NCBI GenBank assembly: GCA_030247525.1
Contig: JAOTSC010000003.1
Location: forward strand, 1 to 58,811
Source: a bacterium
GTDB taxonomy: Bacteria > Electryoneota > JAOADG01
Reading direction: 5' to 3'
Length of the DNA stretch: 58,811 nt
The translations under genes were made by a program, and so were the position numbers. Shown here piece after piece: positions 4,855-54,183 of the stretch; positions within the stretch are counted from its first letter, which is position 1, and each line of letters begins with the position of its first letter. The notes beneath the pieces were generated by a model. That model worked only from the letters and a program-made list of their open reading frames with translations. It did not search any database and had not been told where the DNA came from.

Positions 4855-5195
4855 ATAAACTCACTGCTCAGCGTTTGATTCTTAGGTTGCTATCACTATT
4901 ATTACTGTAGTGAAGCAACATCCCATTTTCCTTTACTTGCGCTGATTTCCTTGACCGGAAACGCTATGAAACTCGATCCTCGTAAGCTTGCTGTAACCTA
5001 CGTTGCTTTTCTTCTCCTAAGCATCGCGAACATCACATCTGCTATTTCGTCGACACCGAAAACCATCCCCTCCCCGTTCTTCTTTACCGAAAACAAAGGG
5101 CAATGGGACGCTCGCGTCCTCTACAAGTGTCAAGCGAAGAATGGGATGACATGGTTCCTCGAACGTGATGGAATTACTCTGTTGCTAACGCAACC

Positions 5196-5290
5196 GGGGG
5201 CTCGGGATTCGGATTTCGGGGCTCAGGGTAGGGACGGACCCCCACGCCCGCCAATCGATGACCCCGTACGTCGGACATTCTTGTCCGACG
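5196..5290. repeat. Intragenic block of G-tract heptads plus two REP-like hairpins
   Basis: gggggctcgggattcggatttcggggctcagg, gtagggacggacccccacgcccgcc and ccgtacgtcggacattcttgtccgacg. The last is the same family as the hairpins flanking the RAYT gene. Confidence 0.8.
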
Positions 5291-5382
5291 ACGTAATGGA
5301 AAACGACTTACCCGAAATGCTGCGTCGCCATCCCGCGCGTAAGAATGTTCCGATGAAGAGTCATGCGTTGAAATTTCACTTC

Positions 5383-5618
5383 GTGAAGGGTGAAGGGTTA
5401 AAGGTCAAGGGTGAAGGGTTAAAGGTCAAGGGTGAAGGGTCAAAGGTCAAGGGTGAAGGGTCAAAGGTGAATGGTGCAAGGGAAACTAAAGAAGTTTCTG
5501 AGAACCTTGACCAGTCTTTTTCTACTCAACACCCTTCACCTTACACCTTACACCAATCTTTTTCCACCCTACACCCTACTCCTTACACCTTACACCAATC
5601 TTTTTCCACCTTACACCG
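5383..5618. repeat. Intragenic inverted pair of GGTGAAGGG-type heptad arrays (G-arm 5383-5480, C-arm 5528-5618)
   Basis: A 21-nt unit aaggtcaagggtgaagggtta occurs about 4 times and is translated as KVKGEGL repeats. It is followed by the complementary caccttacaccttacacc arm, translated as PYTLHQSFSTLH repeats. Confidence 0.9.
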
Positions 5619-5858
5619 TGCTGAAACACGCAGTGTTGAAGCGCAGGGAGAGCTCCCCTGGAAGAATAATTATTTCTTAGGCAACGACTCTTCGCGGTGG
5701 GCACCGAATTGCCGGAACTTTTCTTCGGTCGTGTATCGGGAAGTGTGGGAAAGAATCGATGTTGAATGGTATGAAAACGATGGCAAATTGGAATTCGATT
5801 TCATCGTCCATCCCGGCTTCGATCCCAATCAGATTCGGATGTCGGTGGAAGGATTAGA

Positions 5859-6580
5859 GGGGGATCGGATTTCGGGGTTCGGGGCTCCGGAATCGTTACT
5901 GTCATTGCGAGGCAGCGCAGCGACGAAGCAATCCCATTTGGATAATGGGGAACGGGGGACAGGGGACAGTAGGGGCGGACGCCCCTGTCCGCCCGACAGT
6001 AGGGGCGTGCCGCGCACGCCCGCAGTTACAGGCGTAAGTCAGACAATCCTGTCTGACAAGTATTCCAGTAGGGGCAGACCCTCTGGGTCGCCCGCAGAGA
6101 ATGTTCGTGACCTGCTTCGCGATTCACGAACCACTGAAGGAACTGTACATCGGCAAAAAATGTCCGACGACAACACCAGTAGGGGCGGACGCCCCTGTCC
6201 GCCCGATGGAAAAGAAAATGTTCGTGACCTGCTGCGCGATTCACGAACCACTGGAGGTACTAGTCTGTCTTTGCGAGGAATGGAACGTAGGATCGTCAGC
6301 CGCGAGGCTGACAGCCGCAGTGAAATGACGAAGCAATCTCATTTGGAAATCGGGAACAGAGAACCGGAGACAGGGAGCAGTAGGGTCAGACCCCAGAATA
6401 GTCAGTCCGATGGAAAAGAAAATGTTCGCGACATGGTTCCCGAGTCGCGAACCACTGTAGGAATTTCTTCTCGAACCCCGAATACCGAATCCCGAACCCC
6501 TACGAATGGAACCCCGAATACCGAATTCCGAACCCCTACGAATGGAACCCCGATTGCCCAATCCCCATTGCCCATCACCG
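5859..6580. repeat. Intragenic pile-up of REP-like hairpins and heptad arrays (about 0.7 kb), all in frame
   Basis: Elements present: gtaggggcggacgcccctgtccgccc twice (5969, 6179); gtaggggcagaccctctgggtcgccc (6068); gtaggggcgtgccgcgcacgccc (5999). Also aatgttcgtgacctgc(t/g)tcgcgattcacgaaccac three times (6099, 6217, 6421) and ccgaataccgaatcccgaaccccta heptads (6478-6580). Confidence 0.85.
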
Positions 6581-8405
6581 AGCTTCTCCTACCAACATCC
6601 TTGGGGGAATTGCGAACGGCACTGCCAAGTGTGTATCAAATCTCGGCAAATGGTACTCGCAATGAAATCGATGCGACGTTCCAATTAACCGACCAAAACA
6701 CGTTCGGAATCACGCTCCCGAACGGCTACAATCCCGACCATTCTTTGCGCATCGATCCCCTCATTTACAGTACCTATTTAGGGGGGAGTGGTGCTGATTA
6801 TGGATCTGACCTGTGTGAGGTTGGGAATGGAAATGTTGTTGTTTTGGGATCAACACAAAGCTTTGAGTTTCCAATCACAATAGGTAGCTATCAATCGTGG
6901 TTAAACGGAAGTACAGATTGGTTTGTTACAGAACTCAATAGTAGTGGTTCACAACTGGTTTTTAGTACTTATATCGGAGGAACCTTAAGTGATTACAATA
7001 ATCGAATTCTCAGAGCAGGCGATAACTCGTTGATCATTACCGGTTATACTCGTAGCACTGACTTTCCAGAATATAATCGATTGGGTGTATGCGGTAGCAT
7101 TGACGGGTTAATAGTTACTCTTAGTAGTAACGGATCACAACTACTTACTAGTACTAGAATCGGTGGGTCGAGTGATGATGATATTCGACCAATTATACCT
7201 GATGAAACAGGTGGATATTATGTTGGTTGCGGTACTTTGAGTGTTGATTACCCAATAACTGCCAACGCGTTTGATACCTCCGCAAACGGACAGAGTGACG
7301 GTTGCATTATGCGGTTTAACAACAACTTCACACAGATACTTTACAGCTCTTACTTTGGTGGCTCGATGAATGAGAACATTACCGATGTTTGTCTGTCGCC
7401 AGCTGGTGGAATTGTAGTAACTGGGTTAACATTGAGTGCAAATTTGCCTGTTACATCTACTGCAATTGACTCAACCATTAGCGGAGATTATGATTGTTTT
7501 GTCGCAAAATTTGATGCCTCATTATCATCCCTTTTATATAATACATTTCTCGGCGGCTTAGGCTATGATTCAGGATCAAACATCGTTTGCGATAGTAGCG
7601 GAATTGTTGTAACAGGTGCGGCGGGTGCAGGATTTCCAGTAACCAGTTGTGCTTTGGATACGACCTATCATGGAGGTATGGATTGCCATGTCACAAAACT
7701 GAGATTGGATGGGTTACAACTTGTTTTCTGTACCTACTTAGGTGGGATTGGAGATGATCATGGTTACTGTATCGATCTAGATGATCATTATAATTATATC
7801 GTTGCAGGAAGAACCCAAAGCGTAGATTTTCCAACGACCGCTATGTCTCTATTTCCAACAAATCAGGGGCAACAAGATGGTTTTGCATTGCTTCTCAATT
7901 CAGATGGTTCACAGTTATTGTATAGTACATTTTTGGGTGGGTTATCGGAGGATCGACTTAATTCACTCACTTTACTCAGAGATAGTGTTATTACAGTAGT
8001 TGGTTCTACAGCAAGTGTTAATTATCCAATTACCAACAATAGCTATGACACAACCTACAACGGTGGTTCAAGTGACTGTATTGTTACAAGACTTTTTCTA
8101 AACATTGACACTAACGATGTCGCAAACGAACAATACAAACTACCCGAACTGTATTCATTATCCCAAAACTACCCCAACCCCTTCAACTCATCTACCACCA
8201 TTTCCTATTCACTGCCAAAACCGGGGAATGGTTGAACTGAGACTATTCGACATCACGGGGCGCGAAGTGACTACCCTCGTTAACCAGAAACAGCAAACCG
8301 GAAGCTATCGGGTGACGTTCGATGGAAAGAATCTTTCGTCGGGAACTTATTTTGTGCGGATGCAAGCGGGGGAATTTGTGAAGACGCAGAAGATGGTGCT
8401 CTTAA

Positions 8406-8660
8406 GGTGAAAGGTGTAAGGTGTAAGGTGAAGGGGATCGAAAAAAATGGTGAAAGGTGTAGGGTGTAAGGTGTAAGGTGTAGGTTGTAAGGGTAGAGAA
8501 AGGCGTCCCCGCCTGTATAGGGTAGCGACAGGTCTCCCGACCTGTTAAAAACGAAAGGGCGACCCAGAGGGTCTGCCCCTACTGAAACAAGGGCGGCTGC
8601 CAGCCGCCCCTACGATACAATAAGTTTACCTGCGGTGAGCCCTCCGGGGCTGCCACGTCG
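8406..8660. repeat. Intergenic repeat cluster: GGTG(T/A)A(A/G) heptad arrays plus at least 4 REP-like hairpins
   Basis: Heptad arrays at 8406-8435 and 8448-8493. Hairpins gtagcgacaggtctcccgacctgt (8522-8545), gggcgacccagagggtctgcccctac (8557-8582), gggcggctgccagccgcccctac (8591-8613) and tacctgcggtgagcc... (8626-). Confidence 0.9.
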
Positions 8661-9785: not shown

Positions 9786-9918
9786 GGTAGCCGCGGGCTT
9801 TAGCCCGCGTTCCTTCAATTTGTGTTACCTGTGCGCGGGCTAAAGCCCGCGGCTACCGACTTAAAGGACAAATAGTGCGCGGGCTAAAGCCCACGGCTAC
9901 CGACCTAAAGGACAAATA
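9786..9918. repeat. REP cluster of the GGTAGCCGCGGGC family, including a 44-nt tandem duplication
   Basis: ggtagccgcgggctttagcccgcg (9786-9809) lies in one orientation. It is followed by gtgcgcgggctaaagccc(g/a)cggctaccgac(t/c)taaaggacaaata twice (9831-9874, 9875-9918) in the other orientation. Confidence 0.9.
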
Positions 9919-9932
9919 GTTGTGAGAAAGAT

Positions 9933-22965: not shown

Positions 22966-23105
22966 GTAGGGGCGCGATTCATCGCGCCCGAAACGAGTTG
23001 GTAGCCGCGGGCTTTAGACCGTGCCCAAGGTCAACAGGTAGCCGCAGGCTTCAGCCTGCGCCGACACGGAACATCAAGAATCGCAGGCTAAAGCCTGCGG
23101 CTACC
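22966..23105. repeat. REP cluster (GTAGGGGCGCGAT hairpin plus three GGTAGCCGC(G/A)GGC-family hairpins)
   Basis: Hairpins at 22966-22989, 23000-23025, 23037-23060 and 23082-23105; the last is in inverted orientation. Confidence 0.9.
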
Positions 23106-32054: not shown

Positions 32055-32561
32055 CTACACCGTACGTTGGACATTCCTGTCCAACGGGCCAGACGAGTAA
32101 ATGTAGTACTTATACTCCTCACCCTCTTTCACCAACCCGGCACGAATCGGATTCCACCAAATGTACTCAATTGTTTTGCCGTACTCGTCATCATTTCGAA
32201 TGATTCTGTCCATATACTCTTGTAACCAGACACTACCATTTCGATTTCTACCGGCATTAATCATGCGAGAACTAGAGCCTTTAATGCCCTTCATAATTTG
32301 AGCCAAAGAATACCATTTTCCGTTAATGTCTTATAGTGGCATAAGCACCAAATGCACATGATTATACATGACCACACCAAAGTACAATTGGAAGTACTTC
32401 GCTGCTCCGGTTAGAATAACTGTTCGTATTAGCTCGCGCTCCGAGCATGAAAACTCTTTCAATACTGATGTAAAAGTGACAAAGTAGAGACTTCCACCCA
32501 ATTCCCAATGTGGTAAGTGACCTCGGCGCTTGATTAGCTCATTCGGCGAGTATTCCTTCAC
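32055..32561 (-). pseudogene. REP-associated tyrosine transposase (RAYT, IS200/IS605-like Y1 HUH enzyme) interrupted by one in-frame TAA
   Basis: ORFs 32331..32561 and 32055..32306 are in the same frame, separated only by TAA (32331-32333). HUH motif in YNHVHLVLMP; catalytic-Tyr motif YIWWNPIRAGLV. The 3' end runs into a REP hairpin. Confidence 0.8.
32060..32088. repeat. REP hairpin (TTGGACA family) at the 3' flank of the RAYT gene
   Basis: ccgtacgttggacattcctgtccaacggg is the reverse complement, apart from one loop base, of the copies upstream of the RAYT gene. Confidence 0.9.
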
Positions 32562-32595: not shown

Positions 32596-32733
32596 CCCGT
32601 TGGACAAGAATGTCCAACGTACAGGAACAAACCTACAACTTAGTTTTAAGCCCGTTGGACAAGAATGTCCAACGTACGGGAACAAACCTACAACTTAGTT
32701 TTAAGCCCGTTGGACAGTTTAGTCCAACGTACG
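32596..32733. repeat. BIME-like tandem array: 2.5 copies of a 55-nt unit, each starting with a TTGGACA-family REP hairpin
   Basis: cccgttggacaagaatgtccaacgtac(a/g)gg starts at 32596 and 32651, and a variant at 32706. The spacer gaacaaacctacaacttagttttaag is identical between units. Confidence 0.9.
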
Positions 32734-32746
32734 GCACTAAAACGTA

Positions 32747-38300: not shown

Positions 38301-40961
38301 GACTCAACCTATCAAATCCATTGGGGGACTTACAGCGGTCTCGGCACGGTACATCTCGATCTGAATCGTAATTATCCGACTGGAACATGGGAACGGTTGT
38401 TTGCCGCGACTGCAAATGACGGATATCAAAATTGGCAGGTAACGGGTGCGATAACGGATCATGCGCGAATGCGGGTGATGGTTACCTCGAATCCCTTTCC
38501 CGGGGATACCTCCGATTTCGATTTTGCAATTCGGGGATTCTCGCGAATCTCGGTTGCAGACACGCTCGACTTAGGGGCAGGTGCGATTGGTGCGAATGTT
38601 ACCCGCGCGCTTTGGGTGAAAAATGTTGGTGCGGATACCCTGCGCATCGATTCGGTACGTTGGACGGGCACATATTCCGTGATGTCTCCCTATTCCCGGA
38701 TTGCACCGGGTGATAGCGCGCAGTTTGTCATTACGTGGCAGGTAGCGACGACCGGTCAGATTAACACCTTCCGGATTTATCATAATTCACCGTCGGACCC
38801 GAATCCCTACAATGTGATTTTGAAAGGGGACTGGTATCGCTCCTTCCCCTATTGGGAAACCTTTAGCGATAACAACGGTGCGCCACTTGGATGGACGACC
38901 CAGAACCCCGATAACCGGCTCGGCTGGGCATCGATGTTGGATAACGGAAACTACAGCCGGTTCATGCCGAATGCCGCCTACAACTATCCCGGCGAACGCG
39001 ATTACTTGATTTCTCCCCGCCTAAATTCAGGTGGGGTGGTGTATCCGGCAATGCAATTCGACGTGAGTTACGGACCATCGTCAAATCACGATTCACTGCG
39101 GGTTGAGTGTTCCATCGACAACGGTGTAACCTATCCCTATTTGCTGTTCTATAGCGGCGGTGAACAATTGCGGACACGCACGACGCCGCTTATTCCCGAT
39201 ACGTGGATGACCTTCTCTGCGACGTTCCCGCAAGCCGCCTATTTTTGTAATTCGGTGCGGGTGCGGTTTGTGTCAATTTCCTATCATGGCGACGATTTAT
39301 ATATCGATAACGTTGTGTTCCGGGAAGGGCTCCCTCAATTGACTATTTCGCCGCGTTATCTCGATTTCGGTAGTGTGGTGCGCGGACAACCGGGTAGCCG
39401 ACAGCTTTGGTTCAAAAATCCCGGCAATGCAAATTTACACGTTACCGGAATTACGTTGCCGATTGGTGTCACCACCGCGCTGCAGGATTTTGCCGTAGTG
39501 ATGAATGACTCGATTCCGATAACCATCAATTGGTTGCCGCAAACCGAGACCGTGTTGTGGGATTCGTTGACGATTATCTCCAATGCAGGGAATTCACCTC
39601 GGATTACGATACCAGTGGTGGGATTGTCGGTGATGCCGCTGGATGCAATCCAACCGGCGGGAACATTGCAAGCCGCCGCGACCGTTCCCGGCGTCACTTT
39701 AACGTGGAATGCATCGCCATCAGAAGTATCCGGGTATCATATTTATCGCAGCGATTCACTCCCATTTTTTACACCGCCCGAAGGAAATCTGTTGGGGGTT
39801 ACGTCCGCCGCGACATTGCGTTATCGTGACAGCACATTCTCGCAAAAAGCCTACTACCGTGTATCGGCATTTCTTCGCTCAGAGTTCTCTACTTTCACCG
39901 GGGACGATGCTCTCAACGAACATGGGTTTGCCGTCGTAGAAACTCCCGAGCGGAAAGCGATACTATCCGGTACCGACCGATTTTGGGCGACGGGTCGACG
40001 CGGGTTACTCACGAAATACGCGCAATCCGGCGCCGCGCTTTCTACTCAATATTTTACTACGCCGGCTCATGTCAACAACATCGTGCAATTTTGCGCAGGA
40101 ACTCTTGTAATCACTGGCTATCAAGGCAACGGCGCTGCGCTGATTGCAATGATGCTCGATTCCAATGGCAGTCAACAATGGACGGCGACCAAACCGCTGT
40201 CGTTGGTTTCTTACTTCTATCGTACCGGAGCGGTGCGAACGTTCGATAACGGTTTATTGATGGTAGGCGGTAGCCGGAATGGACTGCCGAATGCCGACTT
40301 GTTGCTTTGGAAAGTGGATCGTAACGGCGCCGATGTATGGACCCGTACTCATGCGATTACCGCGAGCGACGATGACCATGGCGTATGTGTCGCTCCAGCA
40401 ATCGATCAAGGGTGGTTGGTAGGCGGCGGTTCCTATAGCGCGGGGAGTTGGCTGGTGCGGATCGATGATGCCGGTAATCGCACCTGGACCCGATTCTACG
40501 GCGGTGGCGCAGTTTCCCACTTCCAATGTGTCCTTCCCGAAAGCGATGGCGGTGCGGCGCTGTTTGGCTACACGACAGCGTTGGGAGCGGCAAATGGCGA
40601 TGCGTGGCTCGTGCGGGTAAATGCGGTCGGCGATACGCTCTTTACCCGGACGTTTAACCGCGGCGGTAATGAATATTGCCCGGCGGCAGTGAAGACGATT
40701 GACGGGGGGTATGTCTTCCTGATTGCAAACTCCTATGAAAACACCAATGGCGATATCAGGTTGGTAAAGATAAATGCAAGTGGTGTGATACAATGGGAAC
40801 GCACGTTCGATAGCGGTGGCGACGATAACGGGCGAGCTTTGACATTGTGTGCCGATGGCGGCTTTTTAATCGGTGGAGCGAATCGTTCCAACTCGACAAC
40901 GCAATCCGGCAATGCGTGGATTATACGTACTGACGCCAGCGGTTTCGTTATCATGCAATAG
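35367..40961 (+). CDS. Giant secreted subtilisin-like (S8) serine protease with multiple Ig/FN3-like modules and a C-terminal six-repeat beta-propeller-like region
   Basis: Signal peptide. Catalytic triad motifs DTGVDYDHEDL, HGTHVAGTLAA and GTSMAAPNAAAVASW. C-terminal repeats of the GDAWLVRxDxxGxxxWTRTF type. No NYPNPF-type sorting domain. Confidence 0.9.
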   Translation: MRTRIVALFCLLLPALLHAIPDHSFAKDRIWIKLSESFSQTANRAGDGTFTIPTGSFALDAFMAREGIEKLDPLFPFSKVTQSDPLFYKHNLHRHYRIQFKKVFSLSELESLAKRAATLSEIVEAAPIPVYKPCWTPNDWSINDMWGLAAMNVDEAWDHGRTTDSDFIAVTLDTGVDYDHEDLTDNVVANSVEDWNRNGRWDSSWWLPDHQGGDRNLLDDDNNGYIDDVMGWDFVNVTMSSQSRINGEDYDDSDNEPYDFHGHGTHVAGTLAARTNNSRGVPSASRNIKMIPLRVGCAYINSNNDTTSGLYSDYAASAIHYAHNRGARVISMSFGGYNTNNALEDAINWATDHGALCFAAAGNDDTSAVVYPARHANSICVGASDRNYTKAGFSSYGPDVDVSAPGTGIWSTMVNNALHPTNYISWQGTSMAAPNAAAVASWLWTIYPQKSNQEIRWALTHGVRLFPDSLQMGSGVVTMDTSFYLLAKPLRVFWKEGDKLYIGDTAGIRIRTLESNPNRQYRFEIKRAMNNWQWETLQQAAIGSLSGFSIAYPVTYPTDVVMFRISFVDDPAVVDSTFPLIEVARPAQILSNFNSVYWIGDGPIIGSELRRPYSDEYHFQLTHNYGAANTIWTDIHRDYNHEYFRWDPTYPLTDSGRVRVIIPTIPGVGDTCNRTFMIRPYNHVFWPNSGSFRFGETIDLTWESPQTHLVRIQLNRAFPDTNGWVTVADSLVDTGHYDFVVTPLHSTTARFRILNQDNLTLGDTTDNNLIFSDDRVLLSPNGGEFWRIGASQEIRWGSYLPVENQYASIYLNRNYPTGAWESIAHVQNSGSTNWTVTGPATTNARIKIMNAATMRGDTSDASFVIRNSSFQLTDPQNGAAWYIGGWGGVRWTTLSASEGAVRIQLNRNYPSQFWETIIDSTADDGYDSWSVSGTTGSNMRVRIRSRSDTLNCDTLPHNFSILQGWPMVYPNGFETWYVDSTYQIHWGTYSGLGTVHLDLNRNYPTGTWERLFAATANDGYQNWQVTGAITDHARMRVMVTSNPFPGDTSDFDFAIRGFSRISVADTLDLGAGAIGANVTRALWVKNVGADTLRIDSVRWTGTYSVMSPYSRIAPGDSAQFVITWQVATTGQINTFRIYHNSPSDPNPYNVILKGDWYRSFPYWETFSDNNGAPLGWTTQNPDNRLGWASMLDNGNYSRFMPNAAYNYPGERDYLISPRLNSGGVVYPAMQFDVSYGPSSNHDSLRVECSIDNGVTYPYLLFYSGGEQLRTRTTPLIPDTWMTFSATFPQAAYFCNSVRVRFVSISYHGDDLYIDNVVFREGLPQLTISPRYLDFGSVVRGQPGSRQLWFKNPGNANLHVTGITLPIGVTTALQDFAVVMNDSIPITINWLPQTETVLWDSLTIISNAGNSPRITIPVVGLSVMPLDAIQPAGTLQAAATVPGVTLTWNASPSEVSGYHIYRSDSLPFFTPPEGNLLGVTSAATLRYRDSTFSQKAYYRVSAFLRSEFSTFTGDDALNEHGFAVVETPERKAILSGTDRFWATGRRGLLTKYAQSGAALSTQYFTTPAHVNNIVQFCAGTLVITGYQGNGAALIAMMLDSNGSQQWTATKPLSLVSYFYRTGAVRTFDNGLLMVGGSRNGLPNADLLLWKVDRNGADVWTRTHAITASDDDHGVCVAPAIDQGWLVGGGSYSAGSWLVRIDDAGNRTWTRFYGGGAVSHFQCVLPESDGGAALFGYTTALGAANGDAWLVRVNAVGDTLFTRTFNRGGNEYCPAAVKTIDGGYVFLIANSYENTNGDIRLVKINASGVIQWERTFDSGGDDNGRALTLCADGGFLIGGANRSNSTTQSGNAWIIRTDASGFVIMQ

Positions 40962-40964
40962 ATC

Positions 40965-41363
40965 GTGGGTGATGGGGGATGGGAAAAGATGGTGAAAGGT
41001 GTAGGGTGTAAGGTGTTGGGGGATGGGCAGGGGCGGCACAGAAAACGTCCGCTCGTAATGGGTAGGGACTGAGGGTTCCAGTCCGGTTAAAAACAAAAGG
41101 GCGAACACGAGGTTCGCCCTTACTCACGGGCGGCTGCTTGCCGCCCCTACTGGAGGTTAGTCAACCCACCTTGCGGCTCGCCGCAGGTAATCCTGCCTGA
41201 CAGGGGTACGGACAGGTCTCCAGACCTGTTAAATAAAAAGGCGACCCAAAGGGTCTTGCCCCAACCAAACGGGCTTGGGGAAGCCCGTAACCACCTCCCC
41301 AACACCCCAACACTGATAACCCATTACTCATCCCCCATTGCCCATTACCCATTACCCAACCCT
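40965..41363. repeat. Composite 400-nt intergenic palindrome-like element: G-rich heptad arm, 7 nested REP hairpins, complementary C-rich heptad arm
   Basis: G-arm 40965-41033 (gtgggtgatgggggatggg...ggtgaaaggtgtagggtgtaaggtg...). Hairpins at 41099, 41128, 41152, 41206, 41240 and 41271. C-arm 41291-41363 (cctccccaacaccccaac...cccattacccattacccaaccc). Confidence 0.9.
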
Positions 41364-43521: not shown

Positions 43522-43621
43522 GGTAGCCGCAGACTTCAGTCTGCGAATGGAAATAAAACGAGTGTAAACGCGGTCTAAAGCCCGCGGCTACCCATAAGCC
43601 ACTACCCATCGGTGGCTACCC
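43522..43621. repeat. REP cluster (two inverted GGTAGCCGC-family hairpins plus a GCCAC/GTGGC hairpin)
   Basis: ggtagccgcagacttcagtctgcg (43522-43545), cgcggtctaaagcccgcggctaccc (43569-43593) and gccactacccatcggtggctaccc (43598-43621). Confidence 0.9.
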
Positions 43622-44601: not shown

Positions 44602-44788
44602 TTGATTTTTTCGCGCGATAAATATGAGGCACAGCCTCGACGCGCACGCCGGATATGGAAAATCCGGTATCGGTTAGGGCATATTTTTTACTAATGCCCA
44701 ACGCAGACAGGATTGTCCGCGCCACCGAACCCTTGCCTAAAGCGTGATGCGGGCAAGTGATTGGAAAGGAACGGTACGTCTTTCAACT

Positions 44789-44877
44789 GTACGTCGGACA
44801 TTCTTGTCCGACGGGCGTGAAGGAAAAGAGGCGTGTCGGATAACGTTAACATCGACCGACAGGAATGTCGGTCGTGC
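44789..44877. repeat. Two TTGGACA/CGGACA-family REP hairpins in the 300-nt atpB-atpE spacer
   Basis: gtacgtcggacattcttgtccgacggg (44789-44815) and cgaccgacaggaatgtcggtcgtgc (44853-44877). Confidence 0.9.
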
Positions 44878-45134: not shown

Positions 45135-45200
45135 GGGAACAGGGTACAGGGGTTAGGGAACAGGTAAAGCACTGTTCCCCGTTCCCCGTTCCCCATTCCC
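45135..45200. repeat. GGGAACA-type heptad inverted repeat (long hairpin, or G4-capable G-arm) between atpE and atpF
   Basis: gggaacagggtacaggggttagggaacag / ctgttccccgttccccgttccccattccc. The core stem gggaacag (45156-45163) pairs with ctgttccc (45172-45179). The G-arm fits G3N4G3N4G4N3G3. Confidence 0.9.
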
Positions 45201-45210
45201 TGAGGGAACC

Positions 45211-45705
45211 ATGAATCCAATTGAATTGGTAACGCCCAACGTCGGAATGTGGTTTTGGACGACGCTGCTATTCTTAGCGGTGCTCATCATCCTGCGGAAA
45301 ACCGCGTGGGGTCCGATTGTCAAGGCGCTCGAAGAACGCGAGAAGACGATTGCCGACGATTTGAAGCGCGCCGAATCTGCCCGTGTCGATGCCGAAGGGG
45401 CGCGGGAAAGTCTGCTCAAGGAACAGGCGAAAATGCTTGCCGAGCAGAATGACCGGGTCGCCCAGATGATGAAGAATGCGGAACATCGCGCCGCCGACAT
45501 CATCGAACAGGCAAAAGTCGAAGCGCAGAAGCAGCGGGAAACCGCTACCGCCGAAATCGAACGCGAGAAGCAAAAAGCCATCGCCTCGATTCGCAGCGAA
45601 GTCGTAACGGTAGCGCTCAATGCCGCGCAAGCGGTGATCGGCAGAGAGTTGAAGCCGGAAGACCATCAGCGCTTGATTGAACAATCGATCAATCATTTGA
45701 ACTAA
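45211..45705 (+). CDS. atpF: F0 ATP synthase subunit b
   Basis: N-terminal TM helix followed by a long charged coiled coil. Position between atpE and atpH. Confidence 0.85.
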   Translation: MNPIELVTPNVGMWFWTTLLFLAVLIILRKTAWGPIVKALEEREKTIADDLKRAESARVDAEGARESLLKEQAKMLAEQNDRVAQMMKNAEHRAADIIEQAKVEAQKQRETATAEIEREKQKAIASIRSEVVTVALNAAQAVIGRELKPEDHQRLIEQSINHLN

Positions 45706-45779
45706 GGGTGTATGGTGAAAGGTGAAGGGTGAAAGGGATCTTCATGCCACCTTACACCCTACACCTTATACCTTTCACC
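45706..45779. repeat. GGTGAAAGG heptad inverted repeat (imperfect long hairpin) between atpF and atpH
   Basis: The G-arm (45706-45737) and C-arm (45747-45779) are complementary; for example ggtgaaagg (45714-45722) pairs with cctttcacc (45771-45779). Confidence 0.9.
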
Positions 45780-46420: not shown

Positions 46421-46741
46421 ATGAATCCACGGATTTTGCAAATCGCTGGGGAATTGAAGAGGCGGCTGGAACCGCTGTACGGCGAGCGGTTGCAAAAGGT
46501 CGTGGTCTTCGGTTCCTATGTGCGTGGCGAAGAGACTGACGAGTCGGATTTAGACGTCGCGATTGTGTTGGATCCAAAATATGACGATTTAACTGAGTGG
46601 AATTTAGCGGGATCGCTCTTTGTCGAAATCGATTTAGCGTTTGATGTGGTCGTCGATACGCATATAATTTCGCTCGAAGAATACAATGACCGGGATTATG
46701 CGATACTTCGCGCTATCCATAGCGAAGGGGTGACGGTGTGA
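46421..46741 (+). CDS. Minimal nucleotidyltransferase (MNT) antitoxin of a HEPN-MNT toxin-antitoxin pair
   Basis: GSYVRGEETDESDLDVAIV is the GSxxRGx(n)DxD NTase motif. Overlaps the downstream HEPN gene by 4 nt. Confidence 0.85.
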   Translation: MNPRILQIAGELKRRLEPLYGERLQKVVVFGSYVRGEETDESDLDVAIVLDPKYDDLTEWNLAGSLFVEIDLAFDVVVDTHIISLEEYNDRDYAILRAIHSEGVTV

Positions 46742-47118
46742 ACGAACTTGTAGCGTTGCACTTGAAGCGTGCCGAGCGATTTCTGGTCGAAGCGAATTTT
46801 ACTCTGACGAACGAGTTCTTCGATGCGGCGATCAACCGTTCCTACTATGCGATGTTTCATGCGGTAACCGCAGTACTGAAAACGGAAGATGTGGCGCGCA
46901 GTTCTCATGCCGGTGTGATTGCCGCATTTAATCAGTTCTTTGTCAAACCGGGTAAATTCACCGAGGTAGAAGGGCGTTGGCTCAAACACGGCTTTGAAAC
47001 GCGCAATAAGAACGATTATTGGCCGGCGCCGGAGAACAGTGAAGCGGAAGCGCTGCAATTATTTGAAGAAGCGAAGGCGTTTGTAGCGAAGTGTCGGGAG
47101 TATTGCGAAGGAGCGTAG
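46738..47118 (+). CDS. HEPN-domain toxin of the HEPN-MNT pair
   Basis: Helical protein with AINRSYYAMFHAVTAVL and ETRNKNDY motifs typical of PF05168-type HEPN domains. Confidence 0.85.
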   Translation: MNELVALHLKRAERFLVEANFTLTNEFFDAAINRSYYAMFHAVTAVLKTEDVARSSHAGVIAAFNQFFVKPGKFTEVEGRWLKHGFETRNKNDYWPAPENSEAEALQLFEEAKAFVAKCREYCEGA

Positions 47119-47896: not shown

Positions 47897-47950
47897 GGGC
47901 GACCCCGAGGGTCTGCCCCTACAATTGGAGGTTAGGCAATCTTGCCTGAC
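47897..47950. repeat. REP doublet; includes the right copy of the 26-nt direct repeat
   Basis: gggcgaccccgagggtctgcccctac (47897-47922). ttggaggttaggcaatcttgcctgac (47925-47950) is identical to 47264-47289. Confidence 0.9.
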
Positions 47951-50322: not shown

Positions 50323-50387
50323 GGGGGCAGGGAACAGGGGACAGTAAACAGTTTTGCACCGTTCCCTGTTCCCCGTATCCCGTTCCC
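50323..50387. repeat. GGGAACAGGGG heptad inverted repeat after atpA (hairpin plus T-run; attenuator/terminator-like)
   Basis: gggaacaggg (50330-50339) pairs with ccctgttccc (50364-50373). The C-arm is followed by tttt (50388-50391). Confidence 0.85.
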
Positions 50388-50405
50388 TTTTCTGATTGGT
50401 AAAAT

Positions 50406-51269
50406 ATGCCATCTCTCAAACAGACGAAACAGCGCATCGTCAGCGTGAAGTCGACGCAACAGATCACCAAAGCGATGAAGATGGTGGCGGCGGCGAAATT
50501 ACGGCGGGCGCAAAATAATATGCTGGCGGCGCGTCCGTACTCGCACCGGTTGCGCAACGTCATCGCCGAAATGGCGGGACGCACCGACTATAGCCACCCG
50601 TTGTTGGTGGAACGAGCGCCGGAGCAAGTCGGGTTTGTCGTCGTTGCCTCCGACCGCGGGCTCGCCGGCAGTTTCAATACGAATGTGATGAAACGCGCCG
50701 TTGCCGCGTACAACGAACATGAAGGGGCTGACCGCTTCCTGATTACCGTAGGCAGGAAAGCGACCGACTTCTTTACGAAACGCGGCTACAACGTCATTTC
50801 CAAGCATCTCGACATTTTTCCCGACCCGACGCTGGAAAAGTCGCGCCGTATCAGCGATAACATCATCGCGAAATATTACAATGAGATGATTGGACTTGAC
50901 CGCGTCTACTTGGTTTACAACGAATTCAAAAATGTCGTCCAACAACAAATCATTGTCGAACAGCTCCTCCCGATTATTCCGGCGGAAGAGGAGAAGGGCG
51001 GATTTCATCAGGATTTCCAATTTGAACCGTCCCCGGAAGCGATTCTCGATGTAGTGTTGCCGCAGTACATCAATGTCGCTATCTGGCACGTGCTGCTCGA
51101 ATCGTTTGCTGCGGAAATGGCAGCGCGTATGACGGCGATGGAGAATGCGACAAAGGCGGCGTCCGATATGATTTCCGCATTAACGTTGCAATACAACAAA
51201 GCGCGGCAGAGTGCGATTACGAAAGAACTACTCGAAATTGTCGCCGGCGCGGAAGCGCTGAAAGGGTAG
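50406..51269 (+). CDS. atpG: F1 ATP synthase subunit gamma
   Basis: N-terminus MPSLKQTKQRIVSVKSTQQITKAMKMVAAAKLRRAQ and C-terminus ITKELLEIVAGAEAL are canonical AtpG termini. Confidence 0.95.
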   Translation: MPSLKQTKQRIVSVKSTQQITKAMKMVAAAKLRRAQNNMLAARPYSHRLRNVIAEMAGRTDYSHPLLVERAPEQVGFVVVASDRGLAGSFNTNVMKRAVAAYNEHEGADRFLITVGRKATDFFTKRGYNVISKHLDIFPDPTLEKSRRISDNIIAKYYNEMIGLDRVYLVYNEFKNVVQQQIIVEQLLPIIPAEEEKGGFHQDFQFEPSPEAILDVVLPQYINVAIWHVLLESFAAEMAARMTAMENATKAASDMISALTLQYNKARQSAITKELLEIVAGAEALKG

Positions 51270-51370
51270 GGACTCGGGGTTCGGAATTCGGGAATCGGTG
51301 TTGGGTGTTGGGGAAAGATGGTGAAGGGTGTAAGGTGAAAGGTGTAGGGGAAGACAATGTGGGTCGCCCG
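51269..51370. repeat. Heptad arrays plus a truncated REP; left bracket of the HicAB-DinB module
   Basis: gggactcggggttcggaattcgggaatcgg (51269-51298). ggtgaaaggtgtagggg-N9-tgggtcgcccg (51334-51370) matches 52412-52448 in the same orientation. Confidence 0.85.
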
Positions 51371-51428: not shown

Positions 51429-51653
51429 CGTTCGGATACGAACATCCGTTTCGACGATCTTCGTGCCGTTCTTTTACAATTAGAATTTTCGGAACGGATT
51501 CGCGGAAGTCATCATATTTTCGTTCGTGACGACTTCGAAGAGATAATAAATATTCAACCGACGGAAAACGGAAAAGCAAAACCGTATCAAGTGAAACAGA
51601 CGAGAAATCTGATTGTAAAATACCGGTTGAAAGGATTTGACGATGAAGTATGA
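51429..51653 (+). pseudogene. HicA-like toxin gene lacking a canonical in-frame start codon
   Basis: The open frame reads ...NIRFDDLRAVLLQLEFSERIRGSHHIFVRDD...GKAKPYQVKQTRNLIVKYRL, with a GSHH core. A TGA lies at 51426-51428 just upstream, and there is no ATG/GTG/TTG before the conserved core. ATG 51425 lies in another frame. Confidence 0.5.
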
Positions 51654-51849
51654 AGTGATTTTGTACTGGAGCGAAGACGATCAGGCATTTGTAGCCGAAG
51701 TGCCAGAATTACCGGGCTGTGCCGCCGATGGGAGAACCTATCGGGAAGCGTTTGAGAATATCGAAATCGTCGCGCAGGAATGGATGGAAACCGCTCGCGA
51801 ATTGGGTAGAAATGTTCCGGAACCGAAAGGTCGTTTGATTTTTGCATAG
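51643..51849 (+). CDS. HicB-like antitoxin (UPF0150 fold)
   Basis: The MKYEVILYWSEDDQAFVAEVPELPGCAADGRTYREA pattern is typical of the HicB N-terminal domain. Overlaps the hicA-like stop. Confidence 0.7.
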   Translation: MKYEVILYWSEDDQAFVAEVPELPGCAADGRTYREAFENIEIVAQEWMETARELGRNVPEPKGRLIFA

Positions 51850-51855
51850 GATTGG

Positions 51856-52356
51856 ATGGTATCGATGAGTGTTAGTGAGAATATGAAGTGGGTGTATGGC
51901 GTTCACGATTATGCGGTGAATGTCAACCTCGCCGGTATTTCCGATGCGGAGTCGCGAAGGCGGATGGAGCCGGGCGGAAATTGCGTAAATTGGATTATGG
52001 GACACATGCTCTGTTCCCGCGTCCATATTCTCGGTTTTCTCGGTTGCGACTGGACAAAGACGAATGCCGTACTCGAGCCGTATCAGCGGGGAACCAGCGG
52101 CGCTGATTTCGATTCTTTTCTTACTCTGGATGAATTGACAAAACTGTGGCAGGAGTCGTCGGAGCTTTTGAAAACGAACATCGATGCGACGACCGATGAA
52201 CAGTGGTTGGAACCGGCTTCGCTGCCCGGTACGGGATTCGATAAACCGGATACGCGGGAGCGCCGGGTATTCTTTCTATCGTTCCATGAAGGATACCATT
52301 TAGGACAAATCGGATTATTACGTCGGTTACTTGGTAAAGAAGGCGCGATAAAATAG
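51856..52356 (+). CDS. DinB-family (DinB_2) metal-dependent four-helix-bundle protein
   Basis: His triad context (WIMGHMLCSRVH ... FHEGYHLGQIGLL), and a length of about 165 aa. Confidence 0.75.
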   Translation: MVSMSVSENMKWVYGVHDYAVNVNLAGISDAESRRRMEPGGNCVNWIMGHMLCSRVHILGFLGCDWTKTNAVLEPYQRGTSGADFDSFLTLDELTKLWQESSELLKTNIDATTDEQWLEPASLPGTGFDKPDTRERRVFFLSFHEGYHLGQIGLLRRLLGKEGAIK

Positions 52357-52539
52357 GTGAAAGGTGTAGGGTGAAAGGTGTAGGGTGAAAGGTGTAGGGT
52401 GAAAGGTGTAGGGTGAAAGGTGTAGGGGCTGACCCTCTGGGTCGCCCGGTGATGGGTGATAGGTTTTGGGGATTGGATAGCGACAGGTCTTCAGACCTGT
52501 AAAAAAGAAAATAGCAATTCTGGAGAATTGCCAGTACCC
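52356..52539. repeat. 14-nt tandem array (ggtgaaaggtgtag x5) plus three REP hairpins. Contains the right bracket of the HicAB-DinB module and the left bracket of the nuclease-HicAB module
   Basis: Tandem array 52356-52425. gtaggggctgaccctctgggtcgccc (52422-52447), tagcgacaggtcttcagacctgt (52478-52500) and gcaattctggagaattgccagtaccc (52514-52539). Confidence 0.9.
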
Positions 52540-52708: not shown

Positions 52709-53549
52709 ATGATTATCGAACAAGCGTTTTTTGGATTACCGGAATTGTGTGCAAATAAGAGTAGTTTGAGCGAAGCATTTATCAGATCGTGTTTCAGTCA
52801 TAGTATTTTACAAGAATTAATTGCACGTGGAGTTCCTTATCCAATAACAAAAATTCAACACGAATATGTTTACGAAGAATTACAAAAAGGAAATAAATTC
52901 CATGCAGATTTGTGTTTGACGTTGAATGATGAGAAGTATGTAAATAGGATGTCTATATGGGGACAAAAAAAACAACAACATAATTGAAATGAAGCTTATT
53001 AGAAATTATGACAAAAAAGATGGTTCAGAAAACAAGCAAGGCGTAATAAACAATGGGTACTTGCTCGATTCATTATTGCGTCTATCTATCTTACCGAAAA
53101 TTGAAATTGCACAAAAAAACAGCGGTGAGTTGAAAAATAATTCAGTTGGAAGATATTTACTACATGTGTATTTAGGAGAACCTGATCAATTCTTAGCCTA
53201 TAAGGATCAAAAAGGTGATGAAAGATTATGGGTGAAGAATCTTATCGAAGGTGAACAGAACGTAGAACTAGAACCTGCACGTGAAAAGTCCGGACATCTT
53301 CTGGCGATATATTCTAAGTACGGAAATGTTGTTCTGTTGAAAATGTCGATTAGAAGTATCAAAATTAAATCATTTATGAAGAAAGGTATAACTTTTGTCT
53401 TAAGTAAGATAAATTCTTTTCAGCTGAAAACAAATGAAGGAATGTATAATGAAAATGAGTTTGGTTCTTTCGATCAATCGCAATACAGTGTTTTGAAAAA
53501 CGCAAGAAACCAGAGCTTGTTTAATGTTAAAAGTAATCAAAACACATGA
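52709..53549 (+). pseudogene. AT-rich PD-(D/E)xK-like putative nuclease split into two ORFs at an A8 homopolymer
   Basis: AAGGAG RBS before ATG 52709. ORF1 carries FHADLCLTL (candidate catalytic D). The ORF2 frame is open upstream of its ATG and reads IIEMKLI (candidate ExK). The frames differ by +1, and removing one A from the A8 run (52965-52972) fuses them into a protein of about 279 aa. Confidence 0.45.
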
Positions 53550-53743
53550 AAGTCCGTGAGATAATAAAACTAATAGAAAAAGACGGTTGGTACTTGGTGA
53601 CGACCAAAGGAAGTCATCGGCAATTCAAGCACCCTGAAAAACCGGGACGTGTGACAGTTCCGGGACACGTTGGAGAGGATATGCCGGAAGGCATTCGGAT
53701 TTCTATCTTGAATCAAGCCGGATTGCGGAAGAGAGGAAAGTAA
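53546..53743 (+). CDS. hicA: HicA toxin (YcfA-type mRNA interferase)
   Basis: MKVREIIKLIEKDGWYLVTTKGSHRQFKHPEKPGRVTVPGH is canonical HicA. ATGA overlap with the upstream ORF. Confidence 0.9.
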   Translation: MKVREIIKLIEKDGWYLVTTKGSHRQFKHPEKPGRVTVPGHVGEDMPEGIRISILNQAGLRKRGK

Positions 53744-53744
53744 T

Positions 53745-54020
53745 ATGCGGTACGAGTATGCTATCTTCATCGAACGGTCGAAAAGCCGGTATTGGGCTTC
53801 CGTACCCGATCTTCCGGGTTGTGTTTCCTGTGGAAAATCGTTAGAAGAATTGCAAAAAAATATCCAAGAAGCCATCGAATTTCATTTGGAAGGGATGGTC
53901 GAAGATGGATTACCAATCCCGAAACCGGTGACAAAAGCAAGTATGGTGGAAGTGGAGCGTCCGACCCGGCGAAAAGCAATACGTCGGATTACCAGGACGA
54001 CGGTACGCGGTCATGAGTAG
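53745..54020 (+). CDS. hicB: HicB antitoxin
   Basis: YAIFIERSKSRYWASVPDLPGCVSCGKSLEELQKNIQEAIEFHLEG is the HicB/UPF0150 domain. Starts 2 nt after the hicA stop. Confidence 0.85.
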   Translation: MRYEYAIFIERSKSRYWASVPDLPGCVSCGKSLEELQKNIQEAIEFHLEGMVEDGLPIPKPVTKASMVEVERPTRRKAIRRITRTTVRGHE

Positions 54021-54183
54021 AGGCGTATTGCAATACGCCCATCGTGTGACGGGCTTGGAAGCCCGTAACCACCCAAACGGGACGGGTAGCGACAGGTCTC
54101 CAGACCTGTAAAAAGAAAATGTGCAATTCGGGAGAATTGCCGGTACCCAAGTGAATTTGAGGGCGTATGCCATACGCCCCTAC
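54017..54183. repeat. REP cluster of five hairpins; contains the right bracket of the nuclease-HicAB module
   Basis: Hairpins at 54017-54040, 54051-54074, 54086-54109 (gtagcgacaggtctccagacctgt), 54123-54148 (gcaattcgggagaattgccggtaccc) and 54161-54183. Confidence 0.9.

Follow-up and report, generated by a model that had tools for sequence, protein, structure and literature searches.

Intergenic-type palindromes and heptad arrays carried in frame in three predicted loops of a DUF7948 beta-propeller gene

In a 58,811-nucleotide stretch of bacterial DNA (positions 1 to 58,811 of contig JAOTSC010000003.1, assembly GCA_030247525.1; hereafter, the window), the conserved N-terminal domain of one gene is interrupted by repeats of the kinds that populate the intergenic spacers. 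In the list of open reading frames (ORFs), the host ORF occupies positions 4951..8235 (+) and encodes 1094 aa, which comprise a signal peptide, a split DUF7948 domain, a beta-propeller of the SBBP type and the first ~25 residues of a type IX secretion system (T9SS) C-terminal domain (CTD). The Pfam match to DUF7948 (PF25778; E=6e-45) is broken into three stretches, and homologues of the host ORF carry the domains PF06739 (SBBP) and PF18962 (Por_Secre_tail). The boundaries of the interruptions were set by comparison with the insert-free or insert-poor homologues P0006 and L005 (a Zixibacteria copy). They lie at ~5194-5292, 5383-5619 and 5859-6580, yielding inserts of 33, 78 and 240 codons, or 351 codons in total (32% of the host ORF), close to the three interruptions delineated in a first-pass annotation that was made from the sequence alone.

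That annotation described the host as a T9SS beta-propeller gene; the respective domains were all found, but the ORF as assembled is not intact. The remainder of the T9SS sorting domain (Por_Secre_tail) is encoded at 8231..8410 (+), in the +1 frame relative to the main ORF, and the Pfam and NCBIfam matches (Por_Secre_tail, TIGR04183) at 8105-8410 fall in a frame different from that of the ORF body. A single extra G at ~8230 (within ...GGGGAATGGTTGAA..., in GGGGAATGGTTGA at window positions 8223-8235) splits the sorting domain from the main ORF, and removal of one G at this site gives an ORF of 1152 aa with a complete CTD nearly identical to the CTDs of relatives. The extra G may be a recent mutation of the genome itself or a mistake in the assembly. 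Widespread indel errors in the assembly were considered as the source of the frameshift but find no support in the other window genes checked, which are intact. Judged as a T9SS type A cargo of the DUF7948-SBBP architecture, the product has the DUF7948 domain and a confidently modelled propeller (AlphaFold2 per-residue confidence, pLDDT, >90), with the CTD out of frame by one G, and its paralogues are intact.

The three inserts differ in composition and complexity. Insert 1 (5194..5292, +; 33 codons), which is missing from the paralogues P0003 and P0067 and from P0006, consists of GGGATTC-type heptads, a decayed GTAG hairpin and, at 5266-5290, a repetitive extragenic palindromic (REP) element of family D, GTACGTCGGACAttctTGTCCGACG. 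Insert 2 (5383..5619, +; 78 codons) is a heptad hairpin, in which a G-rich array, (GGTGAAG GGTTAAA GGTCAAG) x4.6, is followed, after a spacer, by a C-rich array complementary to it (CACCTTA...) that has a 42-nt period; Tandem Repeats Finder (TRF) detects periods of 21 and 42 nt, and the inverted arms lie at 5383-5419 and 5531-5554. Insert 3 (5859..6580, +; 240 codons) has the same bracketed layout on a larger scale, with a left G-rich heptad arm (GGGGATC/GGGGTTC, 5853-5892), ~575 nt of apparently accreted hairpins and a right complementary C-rich arm (6468-6543) with a 36-nt period. Within it lie five GTAG-tagged REPs (5969, 5999, 6068, 6179 and 6380), a GTCAGACA hairpin (6038) and three GTTCGYGA hairpins (6103, 6220 and 6424). 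At 6266..6346 (+), the 5899-5936 element occurs a second time (..TTGCGAGG / GACGAAGCAATC..), interrupted by 48 nt that include a GTAG-tagged hairpin (GTCAGCCgcgaGGCTGAC); this nested insertion, in which positions 5922-5942 match 6327-6347 by BLAST, adds a net 39 nt and keeps the frame.

Folding compared with shuffled sequences gave z <= -2.9 for 8 of 10 genic elements, with dG of -7.6 to -11.1 kcal/mol. The element encoding SLRG..TKQSH, tried as a further hairpin, folds no better than shuffles (z = +0.75) and was set aside as a repeat of another kind. Two of the GTTCGYGA hairpins, at 6103-6131 and 6424-6452, are set apart by a T>C / A>G change that is compensatory: it keeps the stem and changes the encoded peptide from NVRDLLRDSRTT to NVRDMVPESRTT, which points to constraint, or inheritance, at the level of the nucleic acid. 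An Rfam scan of the whole window produced no matches, so that nothing in it favours the presence, inside the inserts, of introns, riboswitches or other structured RNAs already known.

The first-pass annotation assigned the interrupting DNA to the same repeat families that fill the spacers, and its examples were all located. The REP A sequence GTAGGGGCAGACCCTCTGGGTCGCCC is present without mismatches at 6068 (+) and, inverted, at 8557 (-), and with one mismatch each at 47897 (-) and 52422 (+), compared with no matches in shuffled sequences. CCGTACGTCGGACATTCTTGTCCGACG occurs at 5264 and, with one mismatch, at 44787 (exact from 44789), with further copies at 32060, 32598 and 32653. The heptad sequence GGTGAAGGG occurs 8 times, against 0.3 expected, with four copies in the 5389-5460 array and the rest in intergenic arrays. 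Self-BLAST of the window detected dispersed short repeats in ~20 intergenic spacers and, in coding DNA, only at 5263-6457; insert 2 matched the intergenic arrays at 8406-8489, 45704-45779 and 51327-51349. A strict scan of the window for perfect hairpins tagged with GTA[GC] yielded 29 (stems of 7-9 bp, loops of 3-6 nt), of which 23 are located in intergenic DNA, which makes up 17% of the window, four in the inserts of the host gene and one overlapping the end of a transposase-like ORF; the last one is probably due to chance.

The spacer repeats fall into two broad kinds. The GTAG/GTAC-tagged elements are GC-rich hairpins of 23-30 nt that form many families, including GTAGGGGCAGACCCtctGGGTCGCCC, GTAGGGGCGGCtggCAGCCGCCC, GTAGCCGCGGGCtttaGCCCGCG, GTAGGACAGACActccTGTCTGTCC and GTACGTYGGACAttctTGTCCRACG, and each REP family is represented by 2-5 copies in 58.8 kb. 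The heptads form G-rich arrays of 7-nt units (GGTGAAA/GGTGTAG, GGGAWTC/GGGGTTC and GGGGACA/GGGAACA) that start at or overlap stop codons and are mostly paired with a complementary C-rich array; the two arrays then make up a long imperfect hairpin, whose arms in some cases enclose REPs. Arrays with 7- and 14-nt periods were detected by TRF directly after stop codons at 8403, 40991, 45135, 45714, 50317, 51269 and 52356. Inverted heptad arms bracket inserts 2 and 3 and, likewise, five intergenic composites.

Several spacer elements closely parallel the genic ones. The composite just downstream of the host gene (8403..8613) consists of a GGTGAAA/GGTGTAA array that includes the TGA codon of the gene, a GTAGCGACAGG hairpin, an inverted REP A at 8557-8582 identical to 6068-6093, and a GTAGGGGCGGCTGGCAGCCGCCC REP. 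An architecture like that of insert 3, with a G-rich heptad arm, REP hairpins and a complementary C-rich arm, is found at 40957..41356, and a small spacer counterpart of insert 2, a GGTGAAA/CACCTTA-class heptad hairpin at 45714..45779, separates atpF from atpH. The family-D REP at 44787..44813 (+) is identical, over 44789-44813, to the genic copy at 5266-5290. One of the two imperfect REP A copies occupies 47897..47922 (-); the other (52422-52447) is entered directly by a (GGTGAAAGGTGTAG)x5 array with a 14-nt period and 100% matches (52356..52447, +). At 8403-8410, 45703-45714, 51267-51275 and 52354-52362, the heptad arrays start at stop codons or run over them, with the TGA of the host gene lying inside the first GGTGAAA heptad, a positional bias like the one reported for the heptamers of Xanthomonas and Nostoc. 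Inverted heptad-array hairpins are located between genes of the F-type ATP synthase (c/b, 45135-45200; b/delta, 45714-45779; alpha/gamma, 50329-50388), where they may act as intra-operon RNA stem-loops.

The intergenic origin of the inserts holds for the repeats shared by self-BLAST but was not recovered for the entire insert DNA: the segments SLRG..TKQSH, ENVRDLLRDSRTT and SRGGRPCPPD have no intergenic copy in the 58.8-kb window. The opposite direction of travel, in which the low-complexity segments are native linkers and the spacer copies are fragments of these genes, would account for SLRG..TKQSH and ENVRDLLRDSRTT being found only inside the gene within the window, and for the sharing of such segments by many paralogues. 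This is the least credible of the explanations weighed here. The spacer copies are short hairpins that face either way, frequently with several to a spacer, and they neighbour unrelated genes as well as lying within the atp operon; a transposase-like gene is flanked by one of the hairpin families (see below); the distant homologues P0006 and L005 are free of these segments; and another genome has its own, different REPs at the same sites.

Across the inserts, the host frame was reported to stay open, and indeed there is not a single stop in the 33 + 78 + 240 insert codons. The accompanying claim that the other frames carry stops applies to inserts 2 and 3, in which the other five frames contain 3-9 and 3-15 stops, respectively, but not to insert 1, in which three other frames are open too. 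Given the 0.037 stops per codon per frame in the intergenic repeat DNA of the window, the probability of 351 stop-free codons by chance is ~2e-6. The tandem periods in the gene are 21, 42 and 36 nt, in contrast to the 7, 14, 29, 44 and 55 nt of the intergenic arrays and REP tandems (TRF). A pure GGTGAAG array would have an in-frame TGA every 21 nt, whereas the genic GGTGAAG GGTTAAA GGTCAAG unit is open in the host frame only. Taken together, these features are evidence that the inserts are, or until recently were, translated, as far as can be judged from reading frames. Removal of the inserts by inteins or their bypassing was considered and rejected: no such motifs were found, and the strict multiple-of-three periodicities argue for translation.

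These observations also bear on the possibility that the locus is a dead pseudogene, decaying and freely invaded by intergenic-type repeats, with a frame that is open by coincidence. The +1 G frameshift that detaches the T9SS sorting domain fits such a history, as does the nonsense codon in the transposase-like gene on the same contig. We nevertheless consider it very unlikely, given the small probability of so long an open frame and the fact that all genic tandem periods are multiples of three. Moreover, P0002 and P0003 are full length, P0004 and P0005, although N-terminally partial, have intact CTDs, and all four contain the same kinds of insert; two loci on a complete chromosome (L006 and L003, discussed below) are intact from DUF7948 to Por_Secre_tail and carry in-frame REPs; and the other window genes checked are intact.

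Structure prediction, proposed in the first-pass annotation as a check that the inserts fall in surface loops, favours this location. In an AlphaFold2 model built with a 49-sequence alignment, residues 83-133, 150-220 and 310-539 have pLDDT <50 and no secondary structure, and lie between strands with pLDDT of 67-92; across residues 310-539, which correspond to insert 3, pLDDT is ~30. The model thus supports the placement of all three inserts in disordered loops between confidently predicted beta-strands, that is, at fold-compatible positions, as expected of palindromic elements of the Rickettsia type.

The proteins most similar to the host product (P0002-P0005, P0041 and P0067-P0070) come from one GenBank block (MDK96985xx-MDK97012xx, locus tags OEM52_) and hence from one metagenome-assembled genome (MAG). 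This MAG is probably the window's own genome, for two reasons: the database has the window's proteins masked, and the AtpA matches included no other AtpA from that MAG. If so, the close homologues are paralogues rather than orthologues. The AtpA of the window is 84-88% identical to that of a handful of unclassified MAGs and ~74% identical to those of Zixibacteria, Calditrichota, KSB1 and Bacteroidota, which, together with the T9SS cargo, places the organism in the Fibrobacterota-Chlorobiota-Bacteroidota (FCB) superphylum.

When the inserts were compared as protein sequences, at least 10 paralogues from this MAG showed inserts at the same three sites, in the form of mosaic variants that differ by whole units: SRGGRPCPPD (30 nt), KVKGEGS (21 nt), QHPSPYTLHQSFST (42 nt) and a 72-nt block of two hairpins. 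In 49 family members, the sites have lengths of 32-89, 13-136 and 12-244 residues, respectively, the window copy being the longest at site 3. The N-terminal cores of the paralogues are 83-100% identical and the CTDs 77-92%, compared with 37-40% for the propellers. With conserved ends and divergent propellers, the DUF7948 paralogue family appears to be a mosaic with homogenised ends.

Such similarity among paralogue cores raises the possibility that the repeat region shared by the paralogues was collapsed or chimerically assembled, all the more so because the contigs of P0067-P0070, P0004, P0005 and P0041 often start or end in insert zones. An assembly artefact is a highly improbable explanation of the inserts themselves: it would neither leave the frame open nor yield periods that are multiples of three, the same phenomenon is seen in a complete-chromosome assembly, and misassembly could alter the order and copy number of the units only, not the existence of the inserts.

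The complete-chromosome MAG OY820579.1 encodes two family members, L006 (1007 aa) and L003 (909 aa), that are intact from DUF7948 to Por_Secre_tail. Both contain REPs of OY820579.1's own, including CCGTAGGGGCGTATGGCATACGCCC and GTCGGAATAAATTCCGACCTAC, in frame at the same sites, with copies in neighbouring spacers. In a third lineage (L013), the GTAG hairpin GTAGGGGCGCAATTGATTGCGCCC is present in frame at site 2. The first-pass annotation named, as grounds for its own refutation, orthologues with the same low-complexity segments but no matching intergenic repeats. Homologues do carry such segments, but alongside matching intergenic repeats, both in the window's genome, where the spacer copies are at hand, and in OY820579.1, where the inserts match the resident REPs. 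The contig search that started from the host protein alone gave no confirmed relatives, and that with the alignment gave 80 loci, mostly CTD-only matches. None of the exact REP sequences of the window was found in these 80 loci, and a metagenome scan for REP A had no matches. The REP families thus appear, from these comparisons, to be largely genome-specific, with the exception of GTAGGGGCGTATGGCATACGCCC, which is identical in the window (54161-54183, -) and in OY820579.1 (L006 10350-10374 and 2277-2301; L003 12631-12658), where a copy also lies in frame in one of the DUF7948 paralogues; the two genomes thus have at least one REP family in common.

A search with the concatenated insert peptides retrieved 8 matches, four of which are DUF7948 paralogues; the others are the ABC ATPase P0072, with a heptad-derived in-frame array, and the low-complexity HPTPYTL-like ORFs P0071, P0073 and P0074. 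These 8 matches give no evidence of spread into many protein families in the manner of the Rickettsia palindromic elements (RPEs). In P0072, the array reads GEGLRIK x7, and in P0066, an ABC-F protein from a Bacteroidia bacterium, in-frame KVKGEGS repeats are followed by STLHPTP repeats, corresponding to a G-rich array and its complement. These two proteins, which are unrelated to the host family and come from other taxa, suggest that heptad hairpins enter coding regions elsewhere too.

The variability of the inserts could be read as adaptive, as in a contingency locus, with the repeat zones maintained as a means of diversifying a multigene family of surface proteins or of switching it. Loop length would then change whenever an array slipped by 21, 36 or 42 nt, a 7-nt slip would turn the frame off, and REP hairpins would promote recombination among paralogues or modulate translation through mRNA structure. 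The DUF7948 loops would then be dedicated acceptor zones, with REPs and heptads as an engine of loop-length diversity and paralogue recombination in T9SS surface proteins, possibly extending to phase variation by 7-nt slippage. If this is true, it would amount to co-option by the host of a REP-transposase type system for diversifying secreted proteins, conserved across several lineages of an uncultured FCB clade. The family is large (10 or more paralogues here, and ~25 in the genome of 4.34 Mb), its members are secreted or surface-located T9SS cargo with conserved ends and divergent propellers, the same three sites vary greatly in length in several lineages, and the number of KVKGEGS units differs between paralogues. 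We nonetheless find this reading attractive but unlikely, in its general form as in the details of slippage, recombination and translational control and in the notion of dedicated acceptor zones. There is no evidence of on/off variants produced by heptad slippage, and the sole frameshift seen lies outside the repeats; the inserts are simply the genome's intergenic repeats, with no sign of peptide selection beyond the absence of stops; the compensatory change keeps the DNA or RNA stem, not the peptide; and tolerance of the loops explains the data more simply.

The designation of the elements as REP-type, as in the first-pass annotation, seems reasonable and not a mere analogy, because an ORF resembling the REP-associated tyrosine transposase (RAYT) is flanked, in inverted orientation, by hairpins of family D, the family that the gene contains at 5266. 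This ORF (32055..32561, -) encodes a Y1 (IS200-like) transposase (PF01797, E=1.6e-5; best PDB match 4ER8, the TnpA-REP of E. coli, E=1.3e-4) and contains a single in-frame TAA at 32331-32333. On one side, three family-D REPs (32598, 32653 and 32708) form a 55-nt tandem of REP plus spacer, x2.6 (32598..32734, -), and on the other side, a fourth (32060..32086, +) has the opposite orientation. Family D is the only family found to flank the ORF as inverted cognate REPs, and this combination is the canonical RAYT arrangement. The elements also have the features of the GTAG/CGTC class of REPs, namely, a short GC-rich hairpin with a 5' GTAG tag in those at 5969, 5999, 6068, 6179 and 6380, and GTA-CGTC in family D (5266). 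Because of the in-frame TAA and the lack of a transposase linked to the GTAGGGGC families in the window, mobilisation of the REPs by a RAYT is regarded here as putative.

The explanation that we consider likely is that intergenic repeats have accreted in three permissive loops of DUF7948, have been kept in frame and have been reshuffled among the paralogues. Under this scenario, three hypervariable surface loops of the DUF7948 beta-domain would be permissive to insertion, and heptad hairpins and REPs, normally located just downstream of genes, would have entered them. The repeat system would consist of the heptad hairpins and of GTAG/GTAC-tagged REPs of the kind mobilised by RAYT/Y1 transposases. 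Growth would be by accretion, with new hairpins arising inside or beside older ones, as in the nested insertion, and with arrays lengthened by slippage. Selection would pass only stop-free additions in multiples of three, so that the DNA would be translated into disordered loops rich in Gly, Ser, Arg, Pro and Thr that leave the fold undisturbed; the insert peptides are probably near-neutral passengers. The modules would spread and be reshuffled through recombination or gene conversion between paralogues, as suggested by the near-identity of the N-terminal domain in at least 10 of them, whose propellers differ.

Several observations weigh against this explanation. For roughly half of insert 3, the window offers no intergenic match, and every GTAG element in the gene has the same orientation and the same S-R-G phase, which simple random insertion does not predict. 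The only RAYT-like gene is interrupted by a stop and flanks a single hairpin family. The frameshift ahead of the T9SS sorting domain means that the host copy, as assembled, may be a recent pseudogene. Finally, because the N-terminal region recurs in the paralogues, several of whose contigs break within insert zones, the order and copy number of the units in a MAG contig of the short-read type could be partly misassembled.

In-frame selfish palindromes are usually seen as a curiosity of Rickettsia, with small scattered cases elsewhere. The recurrence of inserts in the same loops with genome-specific REPs suggests that clusters seeded in a tolerant loop attract further insertions. Such clusters can build long disordered segments from nothing, which bears on the origin of low-complexity regions and new peptides in bacteria. 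In practical terms, the insert zones break MAG assemblies and inflate the counts of hypothetical low-complexity proteins, and surveys of REPs and heptads that mask coding regions will miss inserts of this kind.

Elsewhere in the window, the GTAGCCGCGGGCtttaGCCCGCG family is abundant, forming head-to-head pairs and a 44-nt tandem (9787-9920, 22998-23105 and 43523-43592), with none seen in the host gene. REP-flanked gaps in and around the atp cluster harbour toxin-antitoxin-like modules, namely, a nucleotidyltransferase/HEPN pair, a HicB-like ORF and HicA/HicB (46421-47118, 51637-51849 and 53546-54020).

The first-pass annotation compared the inserts with the RPEs and presented them as a parallel in a different lineage. 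The presence of in-frame palindromes in a conserved domain bears out the comparison, but within the window the elements are confined to one gene family. In-frame palindromic repeats in Rickettsia are the classic case (Ogata et al. 2000, 2002, as cited in PMC3733652 and PMC10969869), and, in the outline given by these citing papers, RPEs are likewise selfish palindromic repeats inserted in frame in genes and translated at fold-compatible positions. As outlined there, RPEs are units of ~100-150 bp, each encoding a conserved peptide, found in dozens of unrelated genes of an obligate intracellular alphaproteobacterium, whereas the elements described here are hairpins of 23-37 nt and 7-nt arrays accreted into composites of up to 720 nt. 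We found no unit of ~100-150 bp with a family-specific peptide, the inserts being mosaics, and one gene of the ~40 in the window carries the repeats rather than many unrelated ones.

Nostoc has very small hairpin repeats that accompany heptamer arrays and take part in nested insertions, and the short tandemly repeated repetitive (STRR) and small dispersed repeat (SDR) sequences of cyanobacteria were reportedly described by Mazel in 1990 and Elhai in 2008. The intergenic arrays of the window share the defining features of G-rich heptameric simple sequence repeats (SSRs), that is, tandem 7-nt units at stop codons, some of them in inverted pairs. In Xanthomonas and Nostoc, such SSRs (GGGAATC, GGGGAYT) lie within 50 bp of stop codons or overlap them, sometimes form inverted pairs and differ in length from one relative to another (Rehm et al. 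2015, PMC4692102). In contrast to those, the genic arrays described here, an exception to the usual placement in spacers, are re-phased to periods of 21, 36 and 42 nt and apparently translated. The REP-RAYT and REPIN systems (Nunvar 2010, PMC2817692; Bertels & Rainey 2011, PMC3116915; Messing 2012, PDB 4ER8) likewise combine a homologue of the Y1 HUH transposase flanked by inverted cognate REPs with REPs dispersed in spacers; here, the RAYT-like ORF contains a nonsense codon, its REPs are tagged with GTAC/CGT rather than GTAG, and many distinct hairpin families coexist within 58.8 kb.

In-frame intragenic palindromic repeats as such are already known, so the novelty implied by the first-pass annotation was overstated. 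Di Nocera, De Gregorio & Rocco (2013, PMC3733652) described in-frame intragenic GTAG/CGTC REPs in Opitutus terrae, Thauera, Thioalkalivibrio and others, which typically encode 20-30 aa, with a maximum of 43-82 aa, are spread over unrelated genes, many of them involved in DNA repair, and were proposed to be tolerated in loops or linkers. Those elements, like the ones in the window, are short GC-rich palindromes of the 5'-GTAG type that are mainly intergenic and tied to REP-flanked RAYT genes, with some copies in frame in genes for known proteins, singly, as dimers or clustered. The present inserts, by comparison, amount to 33, 78 and 240 aa in three loops of one domain, combine several REP families with heptad arrays and recur over paralogues and genomes in an FCB-superphylum lineage. 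What is new, then, is the scale, with 32% of an ORF contributed by inserts and a single composite of 240 codons; the architecture of REPs within heptad brackets in a coding region, re-phased to multiples of three; the evidence for accretion and nesting; the recurrence of inserts in the same three loops throughout a large family of paralogues and in genomes that differ in their REP families; and the lineage itself.

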